Notes: a model not told the origin generated them from the letters alone. Shown: positions 11,382-44,657, counted from the first letter of the stretch. The stretch is 44,657 nt of DNA from Betaproteobacteria bacterium (GCA_016202615.1 JACQOI010000216.1:1-44657); one strand, 5' to 3'. Made by a program: numbers and translations.

Positions 11382-11413
11382 TTCCGCCAATGATTGCGAC
11401 TTAGCCTGAAAAG

Positions 11414-25326: not shown

Positions 25327-25345
25327 CTGGGTCCACCCGGCGCAT

Positions 25346-25891: not shown

Positions 25892-25906
25892 GTCGCGAGA
25901 CCGCGG

Positions 25907-26923: not shown

Positions 26924-26943
26924 TCAAGTTTTTCCGTTGCCGG

Positions 26944-27558: not shown

Positions 27559-27577
27559 CGTCGAGGATGGCCGGCGG

Positions 27578-29278: not shown

Positions 29279-29485
29279 TTCCGGCGCCCCCGAATCAACC
29301 GCCCGGCCGCTCGCCGCGGCCGCCAAAGTCCTGCTGCCGTCACAAAACCGGCGGCGTCAGGAGCGAAGAACAGCAGCGACGTTTGGAACGGCCATAGGAT
29401 AGCAGCGATTACCTGCGCGGATACTTTCCGGGATCGCCTCGATGAAATTCAGCCGCGCTTTGTTATCGAATTTGCGCGCGCGAAC

Positions 29486-31444
29486 TCATAGTCCGGTCAG
29501 AAGCTCTATTCTGTTTGCCTCGGATAGGCTCGCGGGGGGCTTCCGGTTTTCCATTACGATGCTTCTCAATGAAATCACTTTCTTACTCGGAACCGGCTTT
29601 TTACTTAGAATGCTTCGCCGATAATCTTCGCCGATCCGCTTTACCTTCTGCTTGGGAGATATGAACCTGTAATAACTGAAGGCTTCCCTCCTCTTGTACA
29701 GCAATATGACATAGTACTCGAGCAGCAATAGCAACTTGATTATGGGATACAGTAAAATCCGCGGAACCCTGGCGGCGAGGGGCGAAGGGATGATTTTTCG
29801 CTGAATGAAGAGCGAGGCAAACGGATAAAACGACGTCTTCCATTTTCGCGTTTTTATCTTTCTGATGATGATGTCTCTTATGCTTTCGTTCCCAAAGACC
29901 GGGGTTGGTTTAAAAATGATGCTTTCTACTTCGTGCGCGGCATAGGCTGAAGTTTGTGCGCCGTTATTTCTTCTGCCGGTTTCCTTGAGATAATATCTCA
30001 TCGCCTCCAGTTGCGCCAACAAATCCCAAAATAGTAATTCACTGACGGGGGCGCCGTTCAAGTTCACGTAGGATAATTTGTAGCTGGGAGCCGTGAATAC
30101 GTTTTCCAGGTAATCTTCTTCGTCGTCGACGGTGCTCCCGATTACACCGACTTGCTGACCATATTCGTAAAGCGGGGTCCCGGGAAACGGGATCGCGTAC
30201 ATCAAATCCTTGCCCTCGGCAGGATGAGAGTGGGTGGCAAGCGCGATTTCAGCCATCAATTTGCCCGTCTCTTTGGCGGTTTCTTCCGTTTCGCCGGGCA
30301 TGCCGAACAGGATGGCTAACGGGGAAAATATCTTGCGGTCCCTGCACCATTTCACGGCGTTTATCACCTGTTCCCGCTTGAATTTCTTCTCCATCAGATC
30401 AAGAATATCTTGGCTGCCCGACTCGATGCCGAATTTCAACGCAACACAGTTATTGTCCGCATAAAATTTGATCGATTCGGGCGTAACAGTGTCGCACCTG
30501 ACCCCGGTGGCGGCCCACAGCATATCGTGCTTTTTCATGATTGCCGCGAACTCGAATGCCTGTTTCTTGTCCGAACCGAAATTTTCGTCCGAAACCGATA
30601 TGAACCCGACGTCGTGATTGTTTTTCAGATACAAAACATGCTCTTCGAGTTCCGGCACATTCCCGGCACGAAACCCTTTGGTCGGGCGTTGACAAAAGGT
30701 GCATCGGGCCACGCAACCTTTATTGACCATCAGCATTGCTATATTCGGTTTTCTTCCGCTTTCGTGCGCCCGGGGATCATGGTTGAACCAATGCGATTCA
30801 CGAGCCGGCCTGAAATAATTTTTCAGTAACTCAGGTTGATCTTGTAACCCTTTCTTGAGCAAATCGTAATCGGGCACCAAAGACATGTCCGATGCGGGCA
30901 GTTTCTCGCCAAATCCGGTAAACGAGAATTCACCTGCCGCATTGAGGAATGCCAAGCCTTTGATGTCGCCAAGAACACCGGGATCGATGGTTCTGCCGTG
31001 TTTTTTCGTGTAGTCCAGCAATTTGACCCACGCAATTTCGCCGTCACCCGCCACGCAAATGTCAACGTCGGTTTTCTTGAGTACGATATTTGCCGATGCA
31101 GCCAGATTCCCTCCCAAAACCATCATGGTGTCCGGGCAGGCGCTCCTGATGATGCGCGCATATTTTTTGACCCGGCCGTAAGTTCCCGATGTAACGGCGC
31201 TGAGCCCTACGATGTCGGGTTTGCTGCTCTGAAAATACGCACGAATTTCGTCGTCTGACGGAAGCAGCATGTCCATGTCGTAAAAATCGAGTTCATCCCG
31301 CTTATAGCCGTTTTTCCACATCCATTGCGCCAGCGCGGTAATTCCAAACTTGGGCAAAACCGGAAGGTTTCCCAGCCCTCGCACCTTGTTTGTGAGGTCA
31401 AAATGCACCGGTTCCCCGGGTACGCTGCACAACACAATCTTCAT
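29486..31444 (-). CDS. B12-binding-domain radical SAM enzyme (class B), with ~130-aa hydrophobic/basic C-terminal extension, 652 aa
   Basis: ATG 31444 is preceded by AAGGAG (31455-31450, 5-nt spacer). B12-type segment PDIVGLSAVTSGTY...MMVLGGNLA. Cluster motif NKGCVARCTFCQR; GMPGETEET. Paralog of the 31638-33638 product. Lower G+C than the island (27-32 per 60 nt in four hand-counted lines). Confidence 0.85.
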   Translation of the reverse strand: MKIVLCSVPGEPVHFDLTNKVRGLGNLPVLPKFGITALAQWMWKNGYKRDELDFYDMDMLLPSDDEIRAYFQSSKPDIVGLSAVTSGTYGRVKKYARIIRSACPDTMMVLGGNLAASANIVLKKTDVDICVAGDGEIAWVKLLDYTKKHGRTIDPGVLGDIKGLAFLNAAGEFSFTGFGEKLPASDMSLVPDYDLLKKGLQDQPELLKNYFRPARESHWFNHDPRAHESGRKPNIAMLMVNKGCVARCTFCQRPTKGFRAGNVPELEEHVLYLKNNHDVGFISVSDENFGSDKKQAFEFAAIMKKHDMLWAATGVRCDTVTPESIKFYADNNCVALKFGIESGSQDILDLMEKKFKREQVINAVKWCRDRKIFSPLAILFGMPGETEETAKETGKLMAEIALATHSHPAEGKDLMYAIPFPGTPLYEYGQQVGVIGSTVDDEEDYLENVFTAPSYKLSYVNLNGAPVSELLFWDLLAQLEAMRYYLKETGRRNNGAQTSAYAAHEVESIIFKPTPVFGNESIRDIIIRKIKTRKWKTSFYPFASLFIQRKIIPSPLAARVPRILLYPIIKLLLLLEYYVILLYKRREAFSYYRFISPKQKVKRIGEDYRRSILSKKPVPSKKVISLRSIVMENRKPPASLSEANRIELLTGL

Positions 31445-31637
31445 TGCAACTCCTTAATTTTACGGCAGATTCATGCTATTTCCGAGTAATTTAGTCAGAT
31501 ATTAGCATACCCTCTGACGTTCAGGTAGGCGTATGTGCATGACAAACCTCGCCGCCCCTTGCCCCAAACTGACCGAGATGATAATCCATCTCATTAAAGA
31601 ATGCATGGTTGGCGAGATTTTGGTTTAGACTTAGTCT
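31445..31637. promoter_or_regulatory. AT-rich divergent promoter region between the two paralogous B12-radical SAM genes
   Basis: 193-bp gap between divergent genes. On the minus strand there is an extended -10-like TGCTAATAT (31507-31499), about 55 nt upstream of ATG 31444. On the plus strand there is a weak TTGCCC (31559-31564) followed by TGATAATCC (31579-31587). All of these are candidates only. Confidence 0.35.
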
Positions 31638-33638
31638 ATGCGTATCTCTCTTCTGACCGTACCGGTCGAGACGAATTACATGGATTTCCTTCCCGAGGTC
31701 CGCGCGGAAACCGACATCCTGGTTCCATCGACGCGTTCCGAAGGCCAGCTGCCGGTGATACCCAAGATCGCCATCGTCAGCCTCATCAAATGGATGGAGC
31801 GCCACGGCTACACACGGGATCAGTACGATTACTACGACGTGGACATGCTCCTGCCCTCGGACAAGGAGTTGCTTGACTATTTCAAGAGCTACAACCCGAC
31901 TATCATTGGCCTGAGCGCGGTGGTCTCAACCTGCTACGCCCAAGTCAAACGGATCTCGAGGCTTCTTCGCCAAGCCTGCCCGGACGCCTGGATCGTGTTG
32001 GGCGGTAGTCTTACCGCGTCCTCCAATTTGATCCTGCGCAAGACGGAAGTGGACATTTGCGTGGTCGGCGACGGCGAGATCGCCTGGGTCGATTTCCTCG
32101 ATTACGTGAAGGCCCGCGGCCGCAAGAAGGACTTCAACGCGCTGGGCAATATCACGGGCCTTGCTTTCCTCGACGATGCGGGCGAGCTGCGCTTCACCGG
32201 TTATGGAAAGCAGATTCCCGCCGAACTCAACCCCTTTCCCGACTACGACATCCTCAAGGCGGGGCTTAGGACCCGTCCGCAGGAATTTGCGAATTACTTC
32301 CGCCCCGGTCTGGGATCAACGCACTTCCTGACCGATCCCCGTTCCCTTGAGCCACATCGTCGACCGATGCTCGCCCAGTTGTGGAGTTCCAAGGGCTGCG
32401 TCGCTCGCTGCACCTTCTGCCAGCGTTCCACCAAGGGTTACCGCGTCCTGGGCGTGGATTCGTTGGACGACCATTTGAAGATGCTCGCGAAGCGCTTCAA
32501 CGTCGGCTATATCCACATCCTGGATGAAAATTTTTCCTCCGACAGGGAATATGCCTACGAGCTTGCCCGAACCATGAAAAGGCATGACATGCTGTGGATG
32601 GCCAGCGGCGTTCGCGTCTCCTCGGTCGATTACGACGATATCAAATTCTACAAGGAGCATGGCTGCGTTAGCCTCAAATTCGGCGTCGAATCCGGCAGCC
32701 AGAAAATCATGGACGTGATGGAGAAGAAGTTCACGGTCGAGCGTGTTTTTCAGACTCTTAAACACTGCGCGGATCTGGATGTTTACTCCCCGCTTGCGGT
32801 CATGGTCGGTATGCCCGGCGAGACTTGTGAGACCGCGGCCGAAACTGGCCGCTTTCTCGGGCGCATTGCGCACATGCAAGGTGTTGATCCACAATGGCTC
32901 GGCCTTTCCTGTTTCTACGCACTGCCGCTGACTGGCACTCCGTTATATGTCTACGGCCAACAGGCCGGTGTTATCGGCAAGACCCCGGAGAAGGAGGAGG
33001 ATTACCTGCTCTCTGTCTCCGGTAGCGGGGCCAGCAAAATCAACTACGTCAATCTTAACGGTGCGAACGTCCGCGATGTGGTCTGGTGGGACTGGCTGGT
33101 CAAGCTCGAGGCCCAACGCACTTTCTTTGATCTCGTGAAAAAAACGCCCTTGGGCGAGCCTGGCCACATGCAGAGAGTCCTCGTCAGCGATAGGGAACGC
33201 GAGATAGTGGGCCGTGCGCTGACTCTTCGCAAGATTCTGGACAGCGTCAAGAATTGCAATCTACGCGTGGTCAAGGCCAAGATCTTCTACTGGGTTGAGG
33301 ATGTGCTCATGGAACGCGTTGTAGTCCCGAGCAGGCTTGTTGCGAGTCTCCCGCGCTGGCTCATCTATCCTCTCTTCAAGAATCTGGTCTATGTCAACTT
33401 TTTGGTACAGGGGTATGCTTTGCGCGCGTTCGGCAAGTCCTTCAGCCTGTGGAAGAAGTGGCCAGCCGTCGAGCCCGTACGTGAGGCGCAGAAAGTCCAT
33501 GCGCGCGAAGTGCAGAGAGTTAACGTGAAACTCAACATTCAAAGATCTCTGCGGAGGGTGGTGCGTGAGCGCACCCGAGAACATCCGCCCGCCTCGCAAA
33601 CCGAAGCAAACCAGGACATTCTCTCCATCGGTCTCTGA
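31638..33638 (+). CDS. B12-binding-domain radical SAM enzyme (class B), paralog of 29486-31444, 666 aa
   Basis: Colinear with the minus-strand paralog from Met1: PTIIGLSAVVSTCY...WIVLGGSLT, an identical SKGCVARCTFCQR motif, GMPGETCET, and a shared C-terminal PPAS..EAN...L..GL ending. Confidence 0.85.
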   Translation: MRISLLTVPVETNYMDFLPEVRAETDILVPSTRSEGQLPVIPKIAIVSLIKWMERHGYTRDQYDYYDVDMLLPSDKELLDYFKSYNPTIIGLSAVVSTCYAQVKRISRLLRQACPDAWIVLGGSLTASSNLILRKTEVDICVVGDGEIAWVDFLDYVKARGRKKDFNALGNITGLAFLDDAGELRFTGYGKQIPAELNPFPDYDILKAGLRTRPQEFANYFRPGLGSTHFLTDPRSLEPHRRPMLAQLWSSKGCVARCTFCQRSTKGYRVLGVDSLDDHLKMLAKRFNVGYIHILDENFSSDREYAYELARTMKRHDMLWMASGVRVSSVDYDDIKFYKEHGCVSLKFGVESGSQKIMDVMEKKFTVERVFQTLKHCADLDVYSPLAVMVGMPGETCETAAETGRFLGRIAHMQGVDPQWLGLSCFYALPLTGTPLYVYGQQAGVIGKTPEKEEDYLLSVSGSGASKINYVNLNGANVRDVVWWDWLVKLEAQRTFFDLVKKTPLGEPGHMQRVLVSDREREIVGRALTLRKILDSVKNCNLRVVKAKIFYWVEDVLMERVVVPSRLVASLPRWLIYPLFKNLVYVNFLVQGYALRAFGKSFSLWKKWPAVEPVREAQKVHAREVQRVNVKLNIQRSLRRVVRERTREHPPASQTEANQDILSIGL

Positions 33639-33657
33639 AGCGCGGCAGATAGTCGTT

Positions 33658-34440
33658 CTACAAGGTGAAGCCGTCGTCTACTACGATGTTCTGCCCGGTC
33701 ACGAAAGCCGACCAATCCGACAGCAGGTAAATCAAGGTGCCGCTGATGTCGGTGCGGTCCAGCATGCCCTTGGTCTGGCAATGCCGCCGGTAGTTCTCGA
33801 GGAAAACGGCGGGCTGCCCGTCTTCAATGCCGCCCGGGCTGACGGAGTTTACGCGCACGCCGGTCCCCTTGAGCAGCTTCGCCAGATAGCGCGTCAACTG
33901 GATAATCCCGGCCTTGATCACCGCGTACTCGACCGGCATTGTCATGCTCGTGCCCTCATAGATTTCGAAGCGTGGCGCTATCACGCCGTAGATCGAAGCG
34001 ATGTTGACGATGCTGCCGCCGCCGGTCCGCGACATGGCCTTGGAAAACCGCTGGCAGGTGAGGAAGTAGCCGCCAAGATGAGCGTCGATGTTGGCGCAGA
34101 AATCGCCGTACTCGACATCGAAAAACTGGCGCCCGTGGTTGGGAGCGTAATTGGGAGTGCGAGGATACGCCGCATTCACGAGGCCGTCGATGCGTCCATA
34201 TCGCTTGATGGTCTCACCGACCAGGGCCTCCACGCTTTCCGGCTGGGTAATATCGACCGCGTATGCTGTCGATTTGCTTTTGGGGGCCAGCTTCAGCAAG
34301 TCGGCTAGCGCTGCTTCCGCCGAAGCAAGCGCGACGTCTGCAAGGATCGCAGTGCCCCGCTGCAATGCGATGGCCTTGGCGAACTCCCTGCCCAGCAGAC
34401 CGGCCCCGCCGGTTACGACGATGACCTTGGCTTCAAGCAT
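33658..34440 (-). CDS. Short-chain dehydrogenase/reductase (PtmA-like, as found beside CMP-nonulosonate synthetase genes), 260 aa
   Basis: MLEAKVIVVTGGAGLLGREFA Rossmann motif, NIASIYG and YAVIKAG (YxxxK). The track start is the GTG at 34449; I prefer the ATG at 34440, which overlaps the upstream gene by 8 nt. Confidence 0.8.
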   Translation of the reverse strand: MLEAKVIVVTGGAGLLGREFAKAIALQRGTAILADVALASAEAALADLLKLAPKSKSTAYAVDITQPESVEALVGETIKRYGRIDGLVNAAYPRTPNYAPNHGRQFFDVEYGDFCANIDAHLGGYFLTCQRFSKAMSRTGGGSIVNIASIYGVIAPRFEIYEGTSMTMPVEYAVIKAGIIQLTRYLAKLLKGTGVRVNSVSPGGIEDGQPAVFLENYRRHCQTKGMLDRTDISGTLIYLLSDWSAFVTGQNIVVDDGFTL

Positions 34441-35149
34441 GTTTTGCACGCGCCTTCATCAGGTGCTCAACGATCATGAAATCCAATTCCGAATCGATGT
34501 CCACGGAGCGCTCCTCCGGCATTACGTAGAGCAGTGTATCCGGATTGAACAACGTGTCGCTGCCGAACAGCGACTGGCGGTGCCATACATAGATTGAAGC
34601 GTTCATATCGTAGCAGGCCGGGGCGTCCTGGCGTCGGGCAATCGGTCGTGGCGACGGTTTTGACAGCCGCGCGATGCCGTCCTGCCCGACTTCGACCAGG
34701 TTGAAATAGGGCGATCGCCGCGCAGGAGCTCCCGTAATGACGTTCGAAACGCGGCGGTCTTCAAGCATTGCGGTGGCGTTGACAATGTCCTGCGGTTCGC
34801 GCAGCGGTGAGGTCGCATCGAGATCAACGACGGTATCAAAGTTGTGCCCGGCAAGGCGCTCTGTCTCGGTCACGCAATGCCGGATCGCGGGCAGTTTGGG
34901 CGCCGTGTCGCTTGCCAGTTCGGCCGGCCGCTCGATCAGGTGATCGGCGCCGTAATTACGCGCAGCGGCCAGGATTTCAGACGAATCGCTGCTCACCGCG
35001 ATGGCGTCGAACAGGCCACTGGCGCGCGCCTGTTCGAGGCTGTGAGCAAGCAGCGGTCTGCCGAGCAGCGGGCGCAGATTCTTGTTTGGCACGCCCTTGG
35101 ATCCGCCGCGAGCACAGAGGGTGCAGAGCCGTTTCACGGCGTCACCCAT
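34433..35149 (-). CDS. legF: Acylneuraminate/nonulosonate cytidylyltransferase (CMP-legionaminic acid synthetase candidate), 238 aa
   Basis: CARGGSKGVPNKNLRPLLGRPLLAHSL is the CTP_transf_3 (NeuA) N-terminal signature; also DATSPLR. Sits in an operon with leg genes. The symbol could equally be neuA. Confidence 0.8.
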   Translation of the reverse strand: MGDAVKRLCTLCARGGSKGVPNKNLRPLLGRPLLAHSLEQARASGLFDAIAVSSDSSEILAAARNYGADHLIERPAELASDTAPKLPAIRHCVTETERLAGHNFDTVVDLDATSPLREPQDIVNATAMLEDRRVSNVITGAPARRSPYFNLVEVGQDGIARLSKPSPRPIARRQDAPACYDMNASIYVWHRQSLFGSDTLFNPDTLLYVMPEERSVDIDSELDFMIVEHLMKARAKHA

Positions 35150-35186
35150 GTTGCGTCCTCAATCGAAGGCCTCACGTCGATCTGCA

Positions 35187-37310
35187 TCAGTGGGCCAGGG
35201 TATAGCGCGTATAGCGGTCCACATCGGTATCGGCGAACAGCTCTTCGGTGCCGTCGGCGCCCTCCACGTTCCGAAACAGGCTTTCCAGGTTGCTGATGCG
35301 CGTGACGATCTTGGACAGCGCGTTGACGTCGGTGCCGTAGCGGCGGAACTGGTCTTCGCGCGTCCGCAGCTGTTCGTCCGTGTAATAAAACCGGTATGCC
35401 CTGGGCTGGTTAAATTGAAATGTGCTGAGCGCCGTGCCTTCCGGAGAACGCAACCAAGCGGGCACATCGTGTCTGAGAAGCAGGGTCACAGGCTCGGTAT
35501 TGCCCCTGGAATTCAGCAGTCCCTCGATACGCGCCTGGCAGAAGGCGGATATCGTATCGATTTCCGTACCCGCGACGGCGAGCGCGTCGTCCTGGAGCCG
35601 CTCCCCGGCCAACATGCGCAGCTCTGCAACCAGGTAGCGGATCCAGTCTCCGGCCTGGAAAGCAACGCTTTTCGATTTGTACTTGTAGATCAGGTTGCCG
35701 CCCACCTCACCCCGACGCAGGCGCTGGAAGTTGACCTCGTCCTTGTAATGCTCCAGCAACTCGTCTTCGGAGGCCCACAATTCCCCCTCGGTCTCGGCCA
35801 TGAAGTCGGCGTATAGGGCGCGAATTGTCTCAGGCGCCCGGGCAAGGGATTCGTAAAGCCGCCGTAGCAGGGTGGCGCGCTTGATGCCCAACGAAAGCGC
35901 GTAGCGGAACAATTCCTCGAACGGACGTCCGTTGTGGATGCTTTCCACGATCAGCGCGAAACCCCGCAAAAAAAGATAATCCGCGAATGACATGGTATTG
36001 GTCCGGACGCAGACCTCTTCATAATCAAGCACCCGCCCGCCATCATAGTCGCCGAAGTTCAGCGGCACGATACGAAACCGGCCTTCGATGCCAAAACGGC
36101 GGCGGTAGTCGGGTTCCTTGAACTCGGTGCCATTCAGCAGCATCAGCGTATAGATAGTCACCGACGACGCGCCTGACTCGATCACCGCCTCGACGCCGTT
36201 AACGAAGCTTTCACGGGTTTCGCCGGGCAGTCCGATAATCAATTCCGCCTTGGTGGAGCGGCCGGCCTCACTGAGGTGTTTGTTGATATCGATGTAGTGT
36301 TCGAGCTTGATGTTGGAACGGCGAATGTTTTCCAGGACGCCCTTGTCCATGGACTGCACCGACATGTTCACCGAGAACATCTTGCCGAGGATGCCGGTTA
36401 TTTCGATCACGCGTTCCTTGGCGTTCTTCCCGGTGGTTGCCATTACCTGGCGCGGCCAGTCAAATTTCTGCTGCGTTTCGTAAAGAGCTTCGCAGATCTC
36501 GCGATCGCGCGGAAACATCCCGAAATTGGTGTCCGCGATATGCAGGTTGGACACCTTCAATTGGGCGGCGCGGGGTGCAATGTAAAAAATTTCCTCCCGC
36601 ACCCGCTCAATGGAAAACGAATTCATCTTTTGGAAGTAATCTGCGCCGGTATGGCAGAACGAGCACCTGAACGGACACCCGCGGTTAGTCTCGATAAACG
36701 GTGTGAGTCGACCGTCGAAGAAGTGCTCCAGCATGCCGTTTAAATAGGGCGAAGGGATGACGTCCAGATTACGCAGACGTGCAGGCGCCTGCGTCTTTAC
36801 CAGAGTCGGGGAGGCCGATCCGCGCGTTGACGGTTCGATGAAGATAATGCCCTCGATGGGCGCGTCGAATACCGTCCGGCCGCCTTCGCGGGCATCGAGC
36901 ACGCGCCGGACGAGATTGGCGAACGCGACCTCGCCTTCGTACTCGATATGAGCGTCCGTCGCTGGCCGGCGCAGCAAAAACTCGATCCTCAGCGCATCAT
37001 CATGGGGGAAGTTTGTGCCGCCTTGCACCACCACCGCAGCCGGGTTCGCGGCACGCGCCGCTGCAGCGACGCGCTCCGACAGGTTCGAGTTCCATGAATA
37101 GTTCGAAAGACCCAGTATGTCCGGCGGGTCAGCCTTGATCGCGGCCAGGGCAACGGCCGGATATTTGTACAGAGAAACCCTGACCGCATCGCCGAACTGC
37201 TGCTTGGCGTAGCTGCCCACGAACCCGATGTTGATGGGGATGGTGTCAGACACCAGGATGATTGAATCATGGGTCAGATCGCACAGGCAGATCTTCAGCG
37301 GCCTGCTCAC
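35187..37310 (-). CDS. B12-binding-domain radical SAM enzyme with ~300-aa C-terminal helical extension, 707 aa
   Basis: Trimmed to the GTG at 37310-37308 (VSRPLKICLCDLTHD), which overlaps the upstream TGA (GTGA). B12-type segment PDILGLSNYSWNSNL...VVVQGGTNFP. Cluster motif NRGCPFRCSFCHTG; GLPGETRESF. G+C 33-35 per 60 nt in two hand-counted lines, versus 40 per 60 in legC. Confidence 0.85.
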   Translation of the reverse strand: MSRPLKICLCDLTHDSIILVSDTIPINIGFVGSYAKQQFGDAVRVSLYKYPAVALAAIKADPPDILGLSNYSWNSNLSERVAAAARAANPAAVVVQGGTNFPHDDALRIEFLLRRPATDAHIEYEGEVAFANLVRRVLDAREGGRTVFDAPIEGIIFIEPSTRGSASPTLVKTQAPARLRNLDVIPSPYLNGMLEHFFDGRLTPFIETNRGCPFRCSFCHTGADYFQKMNSFSIERVREEIFYIAPRAAQLKVSNLHIADTNFGMFPRDREICEALYETQQKFDWPRQVMATTGKNAKERVIEITGILGKMFSVNMSVQSMDKGVLENIRRSNIKLEHYIDINKHLSEAGRSTKAELIIGLPGETRESFVNGVEAVIESGASSVTIYTLMLLNGTEFKEPDYRRRFGIEGRFRIVPLNFGDYDGGRVLDYEEVCVRTNTMSFADYLFLRGFALIVESIHNGRPFEELFRYALSLGIKRATLLRRLYESLARAPETIRALYADFMAETEGELWASEDELLEHYKDEVNFQRLRRGEVGGNLIYKYKSKSVAFQAGDWIRYLVAELRMLAGERLQDDALAVAGTEIDTISAFCQARIEGLLNSRGNTEPVTLLLRHDVPAWLRSPEGTALSTFQFNQPRAYRFYYTDEQLRTREDQFRRYGTDVNALSKIVTRISNLESLFRNVEGADGTEELFADTDVDRYTRYTLAH

Positions 37311-38221
37311 GATTTCACCCAGCTTCCTTGAGCTGCCGCCGCTTCGATGCAATGAATAAGCTCGACGATTCGTGCTCCTTCGGTGAGAGAACAAAAGTCC
37401 GCGCGGTCTTTTGAGAGCACCGCTTCGAGCTGCAGGCGGTAGGTGGTGTCGCGCTCACAAGCGAACGGCTCTTCAACCCCGTCTCGCCACAATGCGCCGC
37501 TGACGAGGTCGGCCCGGTAACTATGCGAATCGGTATCGACCGCGATTTCGCGCCGCGGCGCCCGGTCGAGATAATTCATCTGGAGAGTCAGCATCGGGCA
37601 GCGCTCGAGTTGCATCAGGATCGCCCAGGCGTCGTCGCTATCGATGTCGAGGCTGCTGAAATGCCCGCCGAGGGCCGCCACGCGCTGCCAATTCCCGAAC
37701 AACCACAGCGCGTAATCGAGTTCGTGGCTCAAGTCGCGCAATACGCCGCCGCCCGCGTCCCGGCGCGCCGAATAGGATTGCCGGTAATCGCGCTCCGGCC
37801 GCCAGTCCGGCAAATACTGTCCGACATGGACTTGGGCCGAAATCACCTTCTCCGCGGCAAGGACGCGGCGCAAAGCCTGGATGACCGGATGAAAGCGCAA
37901 GTTGTAGGCGACGAAAATGTCCGCAAACGGCCAGTCCCGCACCGGCGCAGGCCGATCGGACAAAGGTTTCTCGACCAGCACCGTGCCGGCGTACCCGCAG
38001 TCGGCCAGGCGCTCCAGGGTCTCGATATGCCGCGATGTTTCGTTTGAGACGACGACCAGTTCGGGCCTCAGATCGGCCAGCGCGGCGTCCATCCCCGCAT
38101 AGGCAGGGTAACTGCATTCCGGATTGCGCGTTACTGCGCCAACCCGTACCCCGCGTTCGGCGAGCAGTTGCGCGTGGCGCGCCCCGATCGAACCGAAGCC
38201 GATGATTACCGCGCTTTTCAC
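37307..38221 (-). CDS. Gfo/Idh/MocA-family NAD(P)-dependent oxidoreductase, 304 aa
   Basis: MKSAVIIGFGSIGARHAQLL Rossmann N-terminus and the EKP motif (VLVEKPLS). GTG start 38221-38219 overlaps the upstream TGA (GTGA). Confidence 0.8.
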   Translation of the reverse strand: MKSAVIIGFGSIGARHAQLLAERGVRVGAVTRNPECSYPAYAGMDAALADLRPELVVVSNETSRHIETLERLADCGYAGTVLVEKPLSDRPAPVRDWPFADIFVAYNLRFHPVIQALRRVLAAEKVISAQVHVGQYLPDWRPERDYRQSYSARRDAGGGVLRDLSHELDYALWLFGNWQRVAALGGHFSSLDIDSDDAWAILMQLERCPMLTLQMNYLDRAPRREIAVDTDSHSYRADLVSGALWRDGVEEPFACERDTTYRLQLEAVLSKDRADFCSLTEGARIVELIHCIEAAAAQGSWVKS

Positions 38222-39270
38222 GGTGCGAATTTGCCTTCATATTCGTTCCGGGCGCGCTCCAGGTCGTCGATGCGGCCGATGTCGAGCCAGTATTCGCGCA
38301 GGGGAAAAACGGCCGCCTGACCGCCGCCGTCCATCACCCGGTTGAAGAGATCGGGCATGTCGATCGCGGAGGCCGCCGGCAGATAATCGAGCGCGCCCGG
38401 ATTGAGTACGTAAATGCCGGCATTGACGAAAAACTTCTGCGCCGGTTTTTCCTTGACCCCCACCAGCCGATGGCCTTCGATGCTGACCATGCCATAGGGA
38501 ATTTGCTGCTCGTATTCACGTACGCACATGGTCGCTGCCGCGTTATGGCTGGCGTGGAAATCGAGCAAGTGCTGGAAATTGATCTTCGTCAGCAAATCGC
38601 CGTTCATCACGATCAGCGGCAGCCGCGGCGCCGGTACGAGCAGCCTCAACGCGCCCGCGGTTCCGAGTTGCTGCTCTTCCTCGAGATAGCGAATCTTCAC
38701 GTTCCACTCGCTGCCGTCGCCGAAATGCTCCTTGATCATGTCGGATTTGTAGTTCACGGAAAAGTGGAACTGGCTGAAGCCGTATTCGATGAAGTTTTCG
38801 AGAATAGTTTCCAGTATCGGCTTGTCGCCGACGCGCAGCATCGGCTTCGGACATTCGTCCGTGAGCGGGCGCAGACGGCTGCCGAGGCCGCCCGCCATGA
38901 TCACGACCTGGTTCTGCCTGTTCACGGGTTGCAGCAGATCGTCCATTATCTCGACCCCGACCAGCCGGCCTTCCTCATCGAGTATCGGTATCTGATGCAG
39001 CTGCTTCTGGCGCATCATCAGCAAAATGCCGTCGCGCGACTCGTTGATGGTCGCAGTCGTCGGGCGGGGATTCATGATCGACTCGACCGGCGCTTCGAGA
39101 TTGGTCCCACGCAGGATCGCCCGCCGCACATCGCCGTCCGTCACGGTCCCGATCAGGCGTGACATGTTGTCGACGACCAGCGCGATCTGCATTGCGCTCG
39201 CATCGATCATCCGGATCGTGTCGCGGATCGTCGTCGATCCGCGCACCACGCTTTGCTTCCAGTTATGCAT
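38218..39270 (-). CDS. CBS-domain-containing sugar-phosphate nucleotidyltransferase (PtmE-like, GDP-sugar supply for the legionaminic acid pathway), 350 aa
   Basis: Trimmed to the ATG at 39270-39268 (MHNWKQSVV), an 8-nt overlap with the upstream gene. The N-terminus carries a tandem CBS-like pair (IALVVDNMSRLIGTVTDGDVRR; HQIPILDEEGRLVGV), followed by VVIMAGGLGSRLRPLTDECPKPML. Confidence 0.8.
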   Translation of the reverse strand: MHNWKQSVVRGSTTIRDTIRMIDASAMQIALVVDNMSRLIGTVTDGDVRRAILRGTNLEAPVESIMNPRPTTATINESRDGILLMMRQKQLHQIPILDEEGRLVGVEIMDDLLQPVNRQNQVVIMAGGLGSRLRPLTDECPKPMLRVGDKPILETILENFIEYGFSQFHFSVNYKSDMIKEHFGDGSEWNVKIRYLEEEQQLGTAGALRLLVPAPRLPLIVMNGDLLTKINFQHLLDFHASHNAAATMCVREYEQQIPYGMVSIEGHRLVGVKEKPAQKFFVNAGIYVLNPGALDYLPAASAIDMPDLFNRVMDGGGQAAVFPLREYWLDIGRIDDLERARNEYEGKFAP

Positions 39271-39907
39271 CGCCGCGCATTCTTCGGGCGGGGACGCCGG
39301 CGACCCAGCCGAGATCATCGACGTCGCGGCATACCACAGCGCCCGCGGCTACCAGGCAACGCCGGCCGATCCTGAGGCCCTGGATGATAGTGGCGCCGGT
39401 GCCGACATGCGTTTCATCGCCCACGGTCACGTTTGCCGACAATGTACAACCGGGGGCAATGTGAACGTGGCGCCCGATTTCGCAATCGTGGTCGACCGAT
39501 GCGCGCGTATTGATGATGGTATTGTCGCCAATATGGCTGCCGGGCTGGATTACCACTCCCGCCATTGCGTGGACACCCTCGTCGAGAACCGCATCCCGGG
39601 CGACGACCGCCATCGGATGAATCACCTGCTCAAAACCGTAGCCGAGAGCCTTGAATTTTTCAAACAGAATTTTCCGCTCGTCCATGGATTGCACCGAGCC
39701 GACCGCGTTCACCAGCCGGACTGCCGACGGTGCATAGCGCGCAAGAGCCGTGTCGTCCCCCAACACGCGATAGCCAAGCAAGGTGCGGTCGAACATATTC
39801 TGATCCTGGGTCGTGAGACCGATCACATTTTTCTCCAGCAGGCGCAGCACATCGAGCACGACCTTGGCGTGTCCCCCGCTGCCGAGCACGATAATCGGGA
39901 GTGCCAT
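39263..39907 (-). CDS. legH: NeuD/PglD-family sugar N-acetyltransferase (LegH candidate), 214 aa
   Basis: Trimmed to the ATG at 39907-39905 (MALPIIVLGSGGHAKVVLDVL), a 1-nt TAATG overlap with the upstream stop. C-terminal hexapeptide repeats (IGDNTIINTRASVDHDCEIGRHVHIAPGCTL). Confidence 0.75.
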   Translation of the reverse strand: MALPIIVLGSGGHAKVVLDVLRLLEKNVIGLTTQDQNMFDRTLLGYRVLGDDTALARYAPSAVRLVNAVGSVQSMDERKILFEKFKALGYGFEQVIHPMAVVARDAVLDEGVHAMAGVVIQPGSHIGDNTIINTRASVDHDCEIGRHVHIAPGCTLSANVTVGDETHVGTGATIIQGLRIGRRCLVAAGAVVCRDVDDLGWVAGVPARRMRGDA

Positions 39908-40986
39908 TAGCTTATTGGATCCCCTGCGCCGAAATCCCTGGGAGCGGATTTGCCAAGCCAGTCCCACAGATACATCGGCGAAATCCCGGTTCCGGGACGC
40001 CTCACACCGACGTTATCTGAGGTAAGCAGCTCTCCCTTGCGGATCGGGCGCAACGCGACAATGCTTCTGCGGGCGATCGCGATGTTCTTTGATTCGGACG
40101 GCATCGGGCGTTTGATTCCGTCGCCGAGCGCGAGGCTCACCTCTCGCACTGATTTTATCATCGCGGCGAGTTCAGCCGGCTCCAGCGATGCGCGATGATC
40201 GGGACCGGGCAGGCCGCGGTCGAGCGTAAAGTGCTTCTCGATGATGGTCGCGCCAAGCGCGGTCGCGGCTACCGGTACGGCAATACCGGGCGAATGATCG
40301 GACAATCCGACCGGCAGGCCGAAACGTTCGCGCAGGGTATGCATCGCCCGCAGGTTTACTTCCTCGAACGGCGCCGGGTACTCGGTGGTGCAATGAAGCA
40401 GCGTGACCGTCGCCTGCAGCGCAAGTCGGCCGGCATCCGAGGCGAACGCCTGGCTGAAGGCAAGGCGCGAGGGCGGTGCTGCGGGCGTCGTCAGCCCGAA
40501 CGCAATCACGCCCAGCGCCTCCTCGATTTCTTCCGGGGTGCTCATGCCGGTGGAAACGATCAGCGGCCTGCCTTGTCTTGCCGCCTCCAGCAGCAGCGGC
40601 GCATTGGTGATCTCGCCCGAGGCAAGCTTGATGCGCGGGACGCCGAGCGTACCGGCGAGGAAACGCAGGCTGTCGATATCGAACGGCGTCGACAGAAATT
40701 CGATGCCGCGCACGCTGCACTGCTCGAACAGAACCCGGTGCGACTCCGTGCCGAGCTCGAGCTTTTTCAGCATTTCGAACTGCGATTCAGCGGCGTCCGT
40801 TGCTCTTGTCTGGTACTCGGCTTTCGGTGCCCCGCGCGTGGCGAGCTGGTCGGCCTTGAAGGTCTGGAACTTGACCGCGTCGGCACCTGCGTTAGCCGCC
40901 ACCTCGACCAGTTTGCGCGCCATGTCGAACGACCCGTTGTGGTTCACCCCGGCCTCGGCGATGATGTAAACGCGCTTATCGTCCAT
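39907..40986 (-). CDS. legI: Nonulosonic acid synthase, NeuB family with C-terminal SAF domain (legionaminic acid synthase candidate), 359 aa
   Basis: VYIIAEAGVNHNGSFDMARKLVEVAANAGADAVKFQTF is the NeuB signature; also LSDHS and C-terminal SAF-like IKRPMPSE...VRRPGTGISP. Start ATG 40986 is preferred; the alternative is ATG 41001. Confidence 0.9.
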   Translation of the reverse strand: MDDKRVYIIAEAGVNHNGSFDMARKLVEVAANAGADAVKFQTFKADQLATRGAPKAEYQTRATDAAESQFEMLKKLELGTESHRVLFEQCSVRGIEFLSTPFDIDSLRFLAGTLGVPRIKLASGEITNAPLLLEAARQGRPLIVSTGMSTPEEIEEALGVIAFGLTTPAAPPSRLAFSQAFASDAGRLALQATVTLLHCTTEYPAPFEEVNLRAMHTLRERFGLPVGLSDHSPGIAVPVAATALGATIIEKHFTLDRGLPGPDHRASLEPAELAAMIKSVREVSLALGDGIKRPMPSESKNIAIARRSIVALRPIRKGELLTSDNVGVRRPGTGISPMYLWDWLGKSAPRDFGAGDPIS

Positions 40987-42139
40987 CGCTACTCGCCGCA
41001 TCGAAAAAGTGCTTCTTGATCAGCGCCGGCGGATCGTCGAACCGTTTGATCGTCGCGAGAATGCGCCGCGAGCTTTCGCCGTCGCCGTACGGATTGACTG
41101 TATTGCTGCAGTTTTTGGTGAGCGCGGTACGGATCGCGGAGCTGATCGCGCTTGTCTCGGGATCGCAATTAATAACGGAGTCGGCCATCAACCGGCCTTT
41201 TTGCCGGTCGCCGATATTGACGGTTGGTTTCCTGAACGATGGCGCCTCGTACACTCCGCTCGACGAGTTGCCGACGATCGCATCGACCTGCGCCATCAGG
41301 CTCAGATAGCGCTGCTGGCCGAGCGACGCAAAGCCTCGCGCGTGGGAACGCGTCGCGACATAGTCATCCACCATCCGGTTCAGCTCGCGGCCGCCGGTGT
41401 CGGCGTTGGATTTGGTGAAAATCAAGCTGAACTGCTCGGCCGGCAGGCCATCCAACGCGGTCAGCAACGCCTGGAACTGTGCCCCCGCAGGCTCCGCATC
41501 GAGCGTCGGTGGGTGGAAAGTAATCAGCAAATTGCGTCGCCTGAAACGCAGTCCGAGCTGCTGTTCGAGCTCCGACCGATCCAGCAGTTTAGCGCGCTTG
41601 ATGGAGTCGATTCCCGGGCTGCCGACGTTGAATACGTGATCGGGATTTTCGCCAAGTTGTATGACGCGCCGTGCGGCATCCTCGTTCGTGACGAAATGCA
41701 GGTGCGACATCTTGGTGATGCTGTGACGGATCGCCTCGTCGTAGGCGCCCTCGGTGGTATCGCCGCCGGCAATGTGGGCGACCGGAATTTTCGCGACCAG
41801 CGCGGCCTGCGCCGCGGCGAAGATCTCGAAGCGATCGCCGGGCAGCACGACGAGGTCCGGACGCAGAGTGCCGAATGCCGCGCCGAAGCCGGTCACGCCG
41901 AGCCCGATCGACTTCGCAATTCCCGCGGGCGTGTCCGACTGCAGCGTATCGATGCGCGCGTCGATCCTGAAGCCGTCGGACTCGATGGCCTGGAAGGTGA
42001 GGCCAAATTCCGGCTCGAGGTGCATGCCGGTCACGGCGAGCTGCAGTTGGCAGTCGCGATCAGCCTGGATGTCCTTCATCAGCCAGTAAAGCAAGCCGTA
42101 ATCAGCGCGGCTGCCGGTGACGACGCAGATTTTTCTCAT
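40976..42139 (-). CDS. legG: Hydrolysing NDP-N-acetylhexosamine 2-epimerase (NeuC family; LegG candidate), 387 aa
   Basis: Trimmed to the ATG at 42139-42137 (MRKICVVTGSRADYGLLYWLMK), an ATGA overlap with the upstream stop. VLPGDRFE and HIAGGDTTEG are NeuC-typical. Confidence 0.9.
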   Translation of the reverse strand: MRKICVVTGSRADYGLLYWLMKDIQADRDCQLQLAVTGMHLEPEFGLTFQAIESDGFRIDARIDTLQSDTPAGIAKSIGLGVTGFGAAFGTLRPDLVVLPGDRFEIFAAAQAALVAKIPVAHIAGGDTTEGAYDEAIRHSITKMSHLHFVTNEDAARRVIQLGENPDHVFNVGSPGIDSIKRAKLLDRSELEQQLGLRFRRRNLLITFHPPTLDAEPAGAQFQALLTALDGLPAEQFSLIFTKSNADTGGRELNRMVDDYVATRSHARGFASLGQQRYLSLMAQVDAIVGNSSSGVYEAPSFRKPTVNIGDRQKGRLMADSVINCDPETSAISSAIRTALTKNCSNTVNPYGDGESSRRILATIKRFDDPPALIKKHFFDAASSDGR

Positions 42140-43314
42140 TGCTTGCCCGCCGCGAGAAACGGGCTGCTCGGGATGTTGATCAGGCGGCGCTCGAGGTCTT
42201 CTGCCGTGTCGAGCGGCATGCGCGGGCAGCTTTGGTACATCGGCAGGCGGTGCATCAAAGTCCATACCGGGCGCGCCATGATGCCCTGCGCATTGAGAGT
42301 ATCGAGCAACTGGTCTCTGCGATCCGACACTGCCGCGTCAAGCACCAATGCGTTCAGCCAGTAGTTGCTGCGCGCATGAGGCGGCTCGGTGAAAAAGCGG
42401 ACGCCGCGGACGCCGGAAAATGCGCTGCGGTAAGCGGCGGCAAGCTCGCGCTTACGGCGCACGAACTCCGGAAGTTGCTCGAGCTGGGCGCAGCCAAGCG
42501 CGGCGTTGATGTTTGGCAGCCGGTAGTTGTAGCCGACTTCATCGTGGACGAACGACCATTTGTGCGGCAGGCGCGCGGTCGTAGTGAGGTGCCTTGCGTA
42601 TTTCGCGAGCGCATCGTCATTCGTGAGCACGGCGCCGCCGCCGCCGGTGGTAACCACCTTGTTGCCGTTGAAACTCAGCGCCGACACCCTGCCGAAGATG
42701 CCGGTATGACTGTCCTTATAGAACGATCCAAGCGACTCCGCGGCATCCTCGATGACTACCAGCTTGAAACGCGCCGCAACCTCCAGCAGGTTTTCAATTT
42801 CCATCGGATGGCCGAAGGTATGCATCGGGACCGCGGCGCGGATTGTCGCCCCGGTTTTGCGATTGACGCACGTGCCGCCACGCACCTCGGCGGTATCGCC
42901 CAGGTAGTCCGACAGCTTGGCCGGGTCAAGGCCGAGCGTTGCGTTCGCGCTGTCGGCGAAATGCGGCGTCGCGCCACAATAGCTCACGGCATTGGCGGTT
43001 GCGATGAAAGTGAGCGCAGGGATCACGACCTCTTCGCCGGGCTGTACACCGGCGAGCTTGAGGCAGACGTGCAACGCCGCCGTGCCGTTGACTACCGCGA
43101 TCGCATGCCGCGCACCCGTGTATTCGGCGAGCTGCACTTCAAAACGGTCAACGTACTTGCCGTTCGACGACACCCAGCCGGTGTCGAGGCAGTCCTTGAC
43201 GTATTCCCATTCTTTGCCGATGAACCACGGTTCGTGGAGGGCGATATTGCCCTGCTTCCCGGGCAGTACCGTCCGGAGCGCTGCGATTACGGCATCGGGA
43301 TTCGGCGCGCCCAT
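42136..43314 (-). CDS. legC: DegT-family PLP-dependent aminotransferase (LegC candidate), 392 aa
   Basis: The track start at 43317 is a TTG. The ATG at 43314-43312 shares 1 nt with the legB TGA (TGATG). NGTAALHVCLKLAG, VIEDAAESLG, and SFNGNKVVTTGGGGAV (PLP lysine). Confidence 0.85.
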   Translation of the reverse strand: MGAPNPDAVIAALRTVLPGKQGNIALHEPWFIGKEWEYVKDCLDTGWVSSNGKYVDRFEVQLAEYTGARHAIAVVNGTAALHVCLKLAGVQPGEEVVIPALTFIATANAVSYCGATPHFADSANATLGLDPAKLSDYLGDTAEVRGGTCVNRKTGATIRAAVPMHTFGHPMEIENLLEVAARFKLVVIEDAAESLGSFYKDSHTGIFGRVSALSFNGNKVVTTGGGGAVLTNDDALAKYARHLTTTARLPHKWSFVHDEVGYNYRLPNINAALGCAQLEQLPEFVRRKRELAAAYRSAFSGVRGVRFFTEPPHARSNYWLNALVLDAAVSDRRDQLLDTLNAQGIMARPVWTLMHRLPMYQSCPRMPLDTAEDLERRLINIPSSPFLAAGKQ

Positions 43315-44318
43315 CAAATATTATAGGTATCCGCCCGGTACTTGTTGAGGTTGCCGGGCTCGCTGAACCAGGCGCAGGTCTCGGCAAGGCCGCGGCGTAA
43401 TCCATCACGGCCCGCGTAATGTGGCTCCCAGTCGAGTAGCGTGCGCGCCTTGGAGTTGTCGGCCCACAGCCGCTCGACTTCGCTGTTGGCCGGCCGCATG
43501 CGGATCTCTTCGGTCTCGATTTCGATGTCCCGGCCCATCACTTCGGCGATCAGCCGCGCCGTGTCCTGGATGCTGATTTCGAAATTGCTGCCGATATTGA
43601 TGACCTCGCCGACGGCGCGCTCGGAGTTTGCTACCGCGATAAAGCCGCGTATGGTGTCCGGGATGTAAGTGAAATCGCGCGTCGGGTGCAGCGTGCCGAG
43701 CTTGATGGTACGCCTGCCGCGCGCAATCTGGGTGATCACGGTCGGGATCAACGCGCGCGCGGACTGTCGCGGCCCGTAGGTATTGAATGGCCGGATGATG
43801 GCGACGGGCGTGCCGAATGCACGTTGGAACGATAGCGCAATCTGATCGGCACCGATTTTTGTAGCCGAGTAAGGCGACTGTCCCTGCAGCGGGTGGTCTT
43901 CGGTAATTGGTACAAAGCGCGCAGTACCGTAGACCTCGCTGGTCGAAGTATGGACCACCTTTGCGACACCCAGTTCACGTGCCGCTTGCATCACGTTCAA
44001 CGTGCCCTTGATATTGGTATCGACGTAAGTGTCGGGCGAATGATAGGAATAGGGGATTGCGATCAGCGCCGCCAGATGCAGCACGGTGTCGCAGCCCTGC
44101 ATCGCGGTCTTTACGCCATGCGGATCGCGGATGTCGCCGGCGAATACATCGAGCGACTGCTTGATCTCGTCGGCGGCATGGTCGAGCCAACCCCAGGAAT
44201 TGAAGGAGTTGTAAAGGACGAATGCGCGAACCTGATAGCCCCCGCGCACCAGCGCTTCGACGAGATGCGAACCGATAAAGCCGTCGGCGCCGGTCACCAA
44301 TATTCTTTTCTGGCCCAT
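43314..44318 (-). CDS. legB: NAD-dependent NDP-GlcNAc 4,6-dehydratase (LegB candidate), 334 aa
   Basis: ILVTGADGFIGSHLVE, YNSFNSWGWLD, STSEVYG, YSATKIGAD. First gene of the operon (ATG 44318-44316), followed upstream by a 259-bp noncoding region. Confidence 0.8.
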   Translation of the reverse strand: MGQKRILVTGADGFIGSHLVEALVRGGYQVRAFVLYNSFNSWGWLDHAADEIKQSLDVFAGDIRDPHGVKTAMQGCDTVLHLAALIAIPYSYHSPDTYVDTNIKGTLNVMQAARELGVAKVVHTSTSEVYGTARFVPITEDHPLQGQSPYSATKIGADQIALSFQRAFGTPVAIIRPFNTYGPRQSARALIPTVITQIARGRRTIKLGTLHPTRDFTYIPDTIRGFIAVANSERAVGEVINIGSNFEISIQDTARLIAEVMGRDIEIETEEIRMRPANSEVERLWADNSKARTLLDWEPHYAGRDGLRRGLAETCAWFSEPGNLNKYRADTYNI

Positions 44319-44577
44319 ATCTTCGTCGTCAGTCTCGTTCCCTAGCAGCCTGTCGGACCTAACAGTCCGTACAGGCTGCTAAAAGCAAAACCGGCTGACC
44401 ATTCATAATAAACTCACTCGAAGCGGTAGAATTTGGCCAAAAAAGTGGGCAACTTCGCATATCTGTTATCCTTTTCCACAATTCCACTTGTGCCGGTTTT
44501 GCATTAGGAGTTTGTCGGGGCTGGTCCGACAAACTCCTAGACTGGCTGCGTTTGATCGTTTGTTGCGGAGGTATGTC
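44319..44577. promoter_or_regulatory. Upstream control region of the leg operon (and of a possible divergent plus-strand gene)
   Basis: Largest noncoding gap at the right end. It lies upstream of the first gene of an 11-gene minus-strand unit. An AT-rich 96-bp core (44396-44491) is bracketed by two related hairpins. No confident -35/-10 assignment. Confidence 0.4.
44343..44539. repeat. Pair of related hairpin repeats in inverted orientation (about 50-bp imperfect terminal inverted repeats; BIME/MITE-like or paired operator)
   Basis: Left unit, 44343-44395: TAGCAGCCTGTCGGAC-CTAACA-GTCCGTACAGGCTGCTA followed by AAA and GCAAAACCGGC. Right unit, 44492-44539: GCCGGTTTTGC followed by AT and TAGGAGTTTGTCGG-GGCTGGT-CCGACAAACTCCTA. 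GCAAAACCGGC and GCCGGTTTTGC form a perfect 11-bp inverted repeat. The stem differences between the two hairpins are compensated. Confidence 0.55.
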
Positions 44578-44657
44578 ATGTCGTTGGTACAACTCGGGCC
44601 GTTCATGAAGTGGCGCGTTTTGCGTGGAGCGCGGCGCGCTGCCAGACAAAGCGCGCG
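44578..44657 (+). CDS. Possible 5' end of a plus-strand gene running off the window (MSLVQLGPFMKWRVLRGARRAARQSA...)
   Basis: ATG at 44578 is preceded by GGAGG (44567-44571, 6-nt spacer). The frame stays open to the window end (26 codons) and third positions are G/C-biased. Too short to assess function. Confidence 0.25.
   Translation, partial: MSLVQLGPFMKWRVLRGARRAARQSA

Follow-up and report, generated by a model that had tools for sequence, protein, structure and literature searches.

A legionaminic-acid-type operon in a betaproteobacterial glycan island with an embedded cobalamin-type radical SAM enzyme, a putative sugar C-methylase

The stretch of DNA analyzed here (the window) is a whole 44.7-kb contig (44,657 nucleotides) of a 4.2-Mb, 80%-complete metagenome-assembled genome (MAG) of a Betaproteobacteria bacterium (GCA_016202615.1, JACQOI010000216.1), and the subject of this work is an operon of nonulosonic acid biosynthesis located at positions 33658-44318 that includes a gene encoding a cobalamin-type radical S-adenosylmethionine (SAM) enzyme. 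The operon consists of ten tightly coupled genes on the minus strand, and all of them are present with the order, strand and outer coordinates described in a first-pass annotation of this DNA. Family assignment of the encoded proteins was carried out with Pfam and NCBIfam models, using curated cut-offs, and with matches to solved structures; the assignments were far beyond chance. The ten genes, from legB onwards, are the following (NAD, nicotinamide adenine dinucleotide; GDP, guanosine diphosphate; GlcNAc, N-acetylglucosamine; PLP, pyridoxal phosphate; NDP, nucleoside diphosphate; CMP, cytidine monophosphate; SDR, short-chain dehydrogenase/reductase):

43314-44318, minus strand: legB, NAD-dependent (GDP-)GlcNAc 4,6-dehydratase, 334 aa; TIGR04180, 529.6 bits (cut-off 475)
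42136-43314, minus strand: legC, PLP aminotransferase, 392 aa, ATG at 43314; TIGR04181, 548.2 bits (cut-off 420)
40976-42139, minus strand: legG (NeuC-type), hydrolysing NDP-sugar 2-epimerase, 387 aa; TIGR03568 (NeuC_NnaA), 463.4 bits (cut-off 235.9)
39907-41001, minus strand: legI (NeuB-type), nonulosonate synthase; TIGR03569 (NeuB_NnaB), 473.8 bits (cut-off 399.65)
39263-39907, minus strand: legH (NeuD/PglD-type), N-acetyltransferase, 214 aa; TIGR03570, 225.1 bits (cut-off 160.8)
38218-39270, minus strand: ptmE, CBS-domain sugar-1-phosphate nucleotidyltransferase, 350 aa; CBS and NTP_transferase, E 2.5e-42
37307-38221, minus strand: Gfo/Idh/MocA oxidoreductase (PtmF / ElaA-type), 304 aa; Pfam GFO_IDH_MocA N and C domains
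35187-37310, minus strand: cobalamin-type (class B) radical SAM enzyme, TokK/CysS-like, 707 aa; B12-binding and Radical_SAM
34433-35149, minus strand: legF / ElaB-type CMP-nonulosonate synthetase, 238 aa; CTP_transf_3, E 9e-22
33658-34449, minus strand: SDR (PtmA / ElaC-type), 260-263 aa; NF006619 / PRK09186, 330.8 bits (cut-off 255)

The overlaps or short gaps mentioned in the first-pass annotation were found as overlaps of a few bases at nearly every junction. legB and legC overlap by 1 or 4 nt according to start-codon inspection, legC and legG share an ATGA, legI and legH overlap by 1 nt (one A common to stop codon and ATG), a GTGA overlap is present at both the ptmE/gfo and the gfo/radical SAM junctions, and legF and the SDR gene overlap by 8 or 17 nt; the 37-nt space between the radical SAM gene and legF is the one gap among the inspected junctions. 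In comparison with the longest open reading frames, the starts of legG, legH and ptmE are most likely at 42139, 39907 and 39270, respectively, and the radical SAM gene starts with the GTG at 37310, giving a 707-aa protein that matches the database record and most of the listed homologues (about 700-720 aa). The legH product includes a PglD_N domain and hexapeptide repeats. A scan of positions 33000-44657 yielded promoter and terminator sites at chance level (4 sites versus 3.3 expected, and 14 versus 10.8, respectively).

The dehydratase and the aminotransferase passed the NCBI models specific for the legionaminic acid (Leg) pathway, and the NeuC, NeuB and NeuD models were likewise above their curated cut-offs, whereas the models of the pseudaminic acid (Pse) pathway failed: PseB on the dehydratase (78.9 bits, cut-off 407.75), PseC on the aminotransferase (235.1 bits, cut-off 423.5), PseI on the synthase (279.7 bits, cut-off 340.25) and PseF on the CMP-synthetase (125.7 bits, cut-off 205.7). 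No PseG-type gene was present among the family matches of the locus proteins. The best solved match of the epimerase was a GDP/UDP-N,N'-diacetylbacillosamine hydrolysing 2-epimerase (PDB 5zlr/5xvs, E 2.3e-92), while the Neisseria sialic-acid epimerase was matched with an E value of only 9.5e-11; the best solved match of LegF was the CMP-NeuAc synthetase 1eyr (E 5.9e-33). No NeuB-family gene other than legI was found in the assembly, and GlmM and GlmU, both above cut-offs, are encoded elsewhere in the genome. The PtmE candidate resembles, in domain architecture and gene position, PtmE of the Plesiomonas cluster (PMC4481668). The joint presence of LegG and a PtmE homologue is a published argument for a Leg pathway via GDP-linked intermediates, and a Tannerella LegB homologue accepted GDP-GlcNAc as its sole substrate (PMC5378307). 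Since the Leg models were passed, the Pse models failed and the Plesiomonas gene order was matched, the legionaminic, GDP-GlcNAc-type reading is supported, and so is the prediction that the locus encodes a complete legionaminic-type pathway rather than a route to Pse or N-acetylneuraminic acid (Neu5Ac). The legionaminic route claimed in the first-pass annotation is thus upheld by the LegB and LegC models, by the failure of all Pse models and by the presence of both a 2-epimerase and a PtmE-type gene.

The closest described counterpart is the genetically studied cluster of Plesiomonas shigelloides 302-73, with the order GlmU-PtmA-LegF-PtmF-PtmE-LegH-LegI-LegG-LegC-LegB, which has counterparts in Vibrio fischeri and E. 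coli (Elg/Wei) and is likewise of the GDP type with PtmE (PMC4481668). The gene order is the same in the window, with three differences: in the Plesiomonas cluster PtmF and LegF are not separated by a radical SAM gene, a small GlmU-like acetyltransferase is found at the cluster end, and the cluster serves flagellin glycosylation, whereas the surroundings of the window operon look like an O-antigen or capsule island. The Campylobacter jejuni CMP-Leg pathway (LegB, C, H, G, I and F with PtmE, PtmF and PtmA) is formed by the same families and is also GDP-linked (PMC4481668, PMC5378307), although its genes are scattered among flagellar glycosylation genes and include no class B radical SAM enzyme, in contrast to the single operon of the window. 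The Gfo/Idh/MocA, CMP-synthetase and SDR genes are therefore not an unusual addition, although the first-pass annotation had counted the two oxidoreductases as extra: the same pair occurs in the same order in Plesiomonas, the three genes being the standard PtmF-LegF-PtmA trio of the Campylobacter/Plesiomonas/Vibrio GDP-type Leg clusters, and the pair says nothing special about the locus.

A second precedent for this trio is found in Acinetobacter baumannii KL49, where a Gfo/Idh/MocA enzyme likewise stands beside a CTP-transferase and an SDR at the end of a Leg pathway (PMC9676051, PMC13656337). Genes lgaABCDEF plus elaABC yield 8-epi-Leg, and lgaABCDEFG yield Leg (PMC9676051). ElaA, a Gfo/Idh/MocA enzyme, has been proposed to oxidize the C8-OH of CMP-Leg5,7Ac2, and ElaC, an SDR, to reduce the resulting 8-ketone from the other face, ElaB being the CTP-transferase (PMC13656337). 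The trio of the window is laid out like this proposed CMP-Leg C8 epimerase; the likeness concerns gene families, layout and motifs (Gfo Lys/His and SDR motifs kept), not sequence orthology. Acinetobacter uses a UDP route with a PglF-type dehydratase and without PtmE, whereas the window cluster is of the GDP type and its trio is split by the radical SAM gene. Structure searches returned no Ela-named match with a library extending to 2026-04-08, the Ela structures being apparently absent from the copies searched.

The residues expected of a functional redox pair are conserved. In the Gfo protein, the catalytic Lys/His residues K85 (EKP motif) and H166 were invariant among nine cluster homologues. 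A phmmer search of this protein against PDB sequences gave no match; a fold search with its model (predicted local distance difference test, pLDDT, 93) gave GenD2, GnnA, WlbA and KanD2 as best matches, all of them secondary-alcohol dehydrogenases of sugars or nucleotide sugars, and the fold resembles that of nucleotide-sugar 3-dehydrogenases. Translation of the SDR gene revealed the glycine-rich cofactor motif TGGAGLLG and the YxxxK motif; its product scored 251 bits with the PtmA equivalog, below the cut-off of 350, and its nearest solved structure was 6uh2, which was the search model used in solving ElaC (PMC13656337). Because motifs, catalytic residues and fold are kept, the pair is read as a real redox couple acting on a sugar. 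C. jejuni carries the PtmF/PtmA pair and yet, as far as is known, makes Leg and not 8-epi-Leg; therefore the pair does not predict the epimer, and from sequence the product is called no further than the legionaminic family, as Leg or 8-epi-Leg. Of the first-pass suggestion that the oxidoreductases might epimerise a center by oxidation and reduction, the redox chemistry has a precedent in the ElaA/ElaC proposal, whereas the presence of the pair is no guide to an epimeric product.

The only non-canonical gene of the Leg operon is that encoding the 707-aa radical SAM enzyme, which the first-pass annotation listed but left out of its interpretation. A search of its sequence against all solved structures gave TokK (E 2.6e-45) and CysS (E 8.5e-40), with an identity of only 19-24%. 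A model built from 18 homologues (pLDDT 85.7; predicted template modeling score, pTM, 0.85) was superposed on TokK over the full length, with a template modeling (TM) score of 0.72-0.77 and an E value of 8e-34, and on CysS with a TM score of 0.66-0.74 and an E value of 4e-30, both matches including the C-terminal domain. OxsB, TsrM, MgmA and AprD4 were far weaker structural matches, OxsB and AprD4 reaching TM scores of about 0.4-0.6. The Radical_SAM model PF04055 was above its cut-off; the B12-binding model PF02310 scored 26.5 bits against a cut-off of 32.1, the domain being nonetheless matched structurally. The three cysteines of the CxxxCxxC motif (C212, C216 and C219) were invariant. These features are shared with TokK/ThnK and CysS (solved structures 7kdx and 9n1b), which have the same B12 domain, radical SAM barrel, helical C-terminal domain and CxxxCxxC motif; their substrates are pantetheinylated intermediates of secondary metabolism, whereas the window enzyme belongs to a separate, unnamed family, which occurs in operons for surface glycans in many phyla. 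Both TokK and CysS depend on cobalamin and methylate sp3 carbons iteratively: TokK/ThnK methylate C6 of carbapenems and CysS extends an O-methyl group. GenK and Fom3 act on an sp3 carbinol carbon, GenK methylating that of an aminoglycoside sugar and Fom3 that of a cytidylylated substrate, a chemistry like that proposed here; neither was among the family or structure matches of the 707-aa enzyme. A literature search on legionaminic acid together with radical SAM retrieved no description of such an enzyme in a Leg cluster.

More than 2000 relatives of the 707-aa enzyme were found, and the best 120 listed, which share 52-100% identity with it, are almost all from metagenomes; no cultured organism with a close orthologue was found in this analysis. 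Orthologues with an identity of 50% or more were located at 17 named genome loci, including those of Magnetovibrio, Sulfuritalea, Pelagibacteraceae, SAR324, Elusimicrobia and Omnitrophota; a NeuB gene was present within 10 kb in 12 of these loci and some Leg-pathway homologue in 15, the exceptions including short contigs. All six metagenome contexts examined around orthologues also carry Leg-pathway genes. A clade of 36-41% identity, mostly from Acidobacteriota, often adjoins NeuB/NeuC genes too, and a clade of 30-35% identity is found mostly with other NDP-sugar genes. Clustering of the open reading frames of the 17 orthologue loci and the window revealed no constant partner of the radical SAM gene beyond the Leg genes. 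In 24 of 24 genomes of the same genus the orthologue was absent (best identity 33-34%). Among the neighbors of some orthologues (loci L089:1-7889 and L001:12187-18243, and the P0012 context), genes for sulfur activation and sulfation recur, comprising an ATP-sulfurylase fusion, a sulfatase and sulfotransferases; they hint at sulfated nonulosonate glycans in those organisms.

The position of the radical SAM gene varies among these clusters. In a Sulfuritalea MAG the operon recurs with proteins 64-82% identical to those of the window, and PtmF and LegF overlap there; the homologue of the 707-aa enzyme (57% identity) is encoded on the other strand, 2 kb downstream and behind a gene for a homologue of the 652-aa enzyme. 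As PtmF and LegF are contiguous in Sulfuritalea and the radical SAM gene stands apart, the gene in the window is regarded as an insertion into the standard trio. Comparison of the window with the Sulfuritalea locus (L013:14179-15704) gave 70-82% identity from LegC to PtmF, 64% for LegF and only 35% for the SDR; the low SDR value is taken to mean that the operon was reshuffled at its 3' end, around the insertion point, and the pattern suggests that recombination had a breakpoint where the radical SAM gene was inserted. In the Magnetovibrio-type order, LegC is followed by the radical SAM gene, a second cytidylyltransferase-like gene, PtmF, LegF and PtmA; this second cytidylyltransferase-like gene (L004:12185-12709; L090:12184-12909), directly after the radical SAM gene, encodes a product 24-25% identical to LegF. 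Another metagenome contig has the order radical SAM-Gfo-CTP-transferase-SDR. The radical SAM gene often, not always, adjoins the Gfo/cytidylyltransferase/SDR trio, and its varied positions thus characterize the enzyme as a mobile accessory of Leg clusters.

Taken together, the operon is best read as one of the Campylobacter/Plesiomonas type that would produce a CMP-activated sugar of the legionaminic family, with Gfo and SDR as a redox pair and the radical SAM enzyme as an accessory that C-methylates the sugar, and we assign to this reading a probability of about 0.7. The predicted product is a 5,7-diamino-3,5,7,9-tetradeoxynonulosonic acid destined for a surface polysaccharide. The housekeeping enzymes GlmM and GlmU, together with PtmE, would supply GDP-GlcNAc, which would be dehydrated by LegB, aminated at C4 by LegC and acetylated by LegH; LegG would then remove GDP and epimerise C2, LegI would condense the product with phosphoenolpyruvate (PEP) and LegF would add CMP. 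Gfo and SDR would most likely oxidize one hydroxyl of the CMP-sugar and reduce it again, the position being C8 in the Ela model. The radical SAM enzyme would most likely use methylcobalamin to methylate an sp3 carbon, either of the sugar or of its N-acyl group, probably at the nucleotide-activated stage; in the side chain, C9 and C8 are the candidate positions, possibly while the sugar is in an 8-keto form. We infer the core Leg steps and the redox role of Gfo and SDR by homology, and the methylation with less confidence.

Several points weigh against this proposal. The 707-aa enzyme is not a member of the KedN5 methylase subfamily (NF033712, 222 bits versus a cut-off of 700), OxsB, AprD4 and BchE are radical SAM enzymes of the B12 type that are not methylases, and we know of no C-methylated legionaminic acid with a solved structure. 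CbiC, a protein of cobalamin synthesis, was not found in the 80%-complete genome, although genes for three B12-type radical SAM enzymes lie on the contig; dependence of the organism on imported cobalamin is possible. On the side of the core pathway, the NeuB-family models do not discriminate between Leg and Neu synthases. Regarding the redox pair, Schoenhofen et al. in 2009 reportedly assigned Campylobacter PtmF/PtmA to GlcN-6-P (glucosamine 6-phosphate) formation, as glutaminase/isomerase, and a literature text search on that assignment returned nothing useful. The C8-epimerase model of the Ela enzymes is backed by genetics, structures and docking, not by enzymology (PMC13656337).

A more specific version of the C-methylation proposal is that the radical SAM enzyme and the Gfo/SDR pair act jointly on the CMP-sugar, so that an 8-keto intermediate would be formed by Gfo, C9 (or C8) methylated by the radical SAM enzyme and the ketone reduced by the SDR, giving a C10 or branched product. 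C9 would be methylated via an alpha-keto radical, as in TokK beside its lactam carbonyl, or the methyl group would be placed on C8 itself. This scheme, drawn by analogy, is tentative and somewhat unlikely, and it would connect the family with Magnetospirillum gryphiswaldense, in which CMP-ulosonic acids with a C10 backbone have been detected by mass spectrometry with no enzyme named (bioRxiv 10.64898/2026.04.20.719630). If true, this radical SAM family, or B12 radical SAM relatives in such clusters, would be the missing enzyme for the Magnetospirillum C10 sugars. No Magnetospirillum sequence was present among the best 120 relatives of either the window enzyme or the Magnetovibrio orthologue, or at any of 79 named genome loci; only relatives with about 53% identity or more were covered, and the search is silent on other B12 radical SAM families, of which those of ~650 and ~530 aa also occur in Leg clusters. 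The link is thus unsupported, with no orthologue among the closest relatives of the 707-aa enzyme, and is treated here as hypothetical.

It has also been considered that the operon yields plain CMP-Leg5Ac7Ac, Gfo and SDR supplying the precursor (from fructose-6-P to GlcN-6-P) and the radical SAM enzyme modifying another component of the polysaccharide. Apart from the C. jejuni product mentioned above, this would be in keeping with the many sugar genes of other kinds in the island, which also has methyltransferases and three additional radical SAM genes, and with two sources that place PtmA or PtmF in the first, GDP-sugar segment of the pathway (PMC4481668; SugarBase methods). The intact dehydrogenase Lys/His and the fold of nucleotide-sugar secondary-alcohol dehydrogenases in Gfo, the translational coupling of the radical SAM gene within the Leg operon through its GTGA overlap, and the fact that its orthologues follow Leg genes across phyla, and not any other sugar pathway, make this explanation improbable. 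Equally low in our estimate is that the radical SAM enzyme is no methylase and catalyzes instead a radical epimerisation, a dehydration/deoxygenation or a carbon-skeleton rearrangement of the sugar: the non-methylases OxsB and AprD4 share the type with a B12-binding domain and the 707-aa protein falls below the KedN5 cut-off, but TokK and CysS, both C-methylases, are by far its best whole-length matches, and those two non-methylases are the weaker structural ones. Finally, synthesis of pseudaminic acid or Neu5Ac in place of a legionaminic-type sugar was rejected as highly improbable because the Pse equivalogs are below cut-off and the Leg-specific models are passed, a hydrolysing 2-epimerase is present without any PseG-type family match and Neu5Ac synthesis needs neither dehydratase nor aminotransferase, even though the best solved match of the synthase by phmmer is the pseudaminic acid synthase 8h2c (192 bits), in a comparison that cannot favor Leg since no Leg synthase is among the solved matches.

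Elsewhere on the contig there are genes for glycosyltransferases, a Wzx-like flippase and other sugar pathways, and the genome, which is 80% complete, yielded no flagellin gene; therefore, the sugar probably enters an O-antigen or a capsule-like polymer. Directly downstream of the Leg operon, at 29486-33638, two divergently transcribed genes encode B12 radical SAM paralogues of about 650 aa that share 22% identity with the 707-aa enzyme; this stretch has a lower guanine-plus-cytosine (GC) content (0.51-0.57 versus about 0.61), and in 5 of 18 sources (17 orthologue loci and the window) the 707-aa family is accompanied by homologues of the ~650-aa proteins. A tailoring block at 24595-29326 includes a class I methyltransferase, a SPASM/twitch radical SAM enzyme (25907-26923) and a WbbJ-like hexapeptide O-acetyltransferase (26944-27558), followed by a gene (27578-29326) whose 582-aa product matched no Pfam or NCBIfam model and could be the nonulosonate transferase. 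Genes for a TylC3-type NDP-hexose C-methyltransferase, an RmlC-type epimerase and a reductase form a separate cassette at 3633-7690 and indicate that the glycan island also specifies a second deoxysugar, a branched one. The region 11001-14000, of low GC content (0.49-0.53), contains a GT2 glycosyltransferase, a 4,6-dehydratase-like gene and a nucleotidyltransferase, and is probably a separately acquired module.

The locus is therefore a largely ordinary Leg cassette in which the redox pair is a known module and the embedded radical SAM enzyme is the new element, Gfo, radical SAM enzyme, CMP synthetase and SDR being encoded in a compact, translationally coupled block. Nonulosonic acids cap bacterial surface glycans and shape phage and immune recognition, and their diversity known so far consists of N- and O-substituents and epimers; to our knowledge, no enzyme has been described for tailoring of these sugars at the carbon level, for which there are mass-spectrometric hints only. 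The occurrence of this radical SAM family in Leg operons of SAR11, SAR324, Nitrospinota, Elusimicrobia, Omnitrophota, Acidobacteriota and beta- and alphaproteobacteria points to carbon-level tailoring of nonulosonic acids across phyla.

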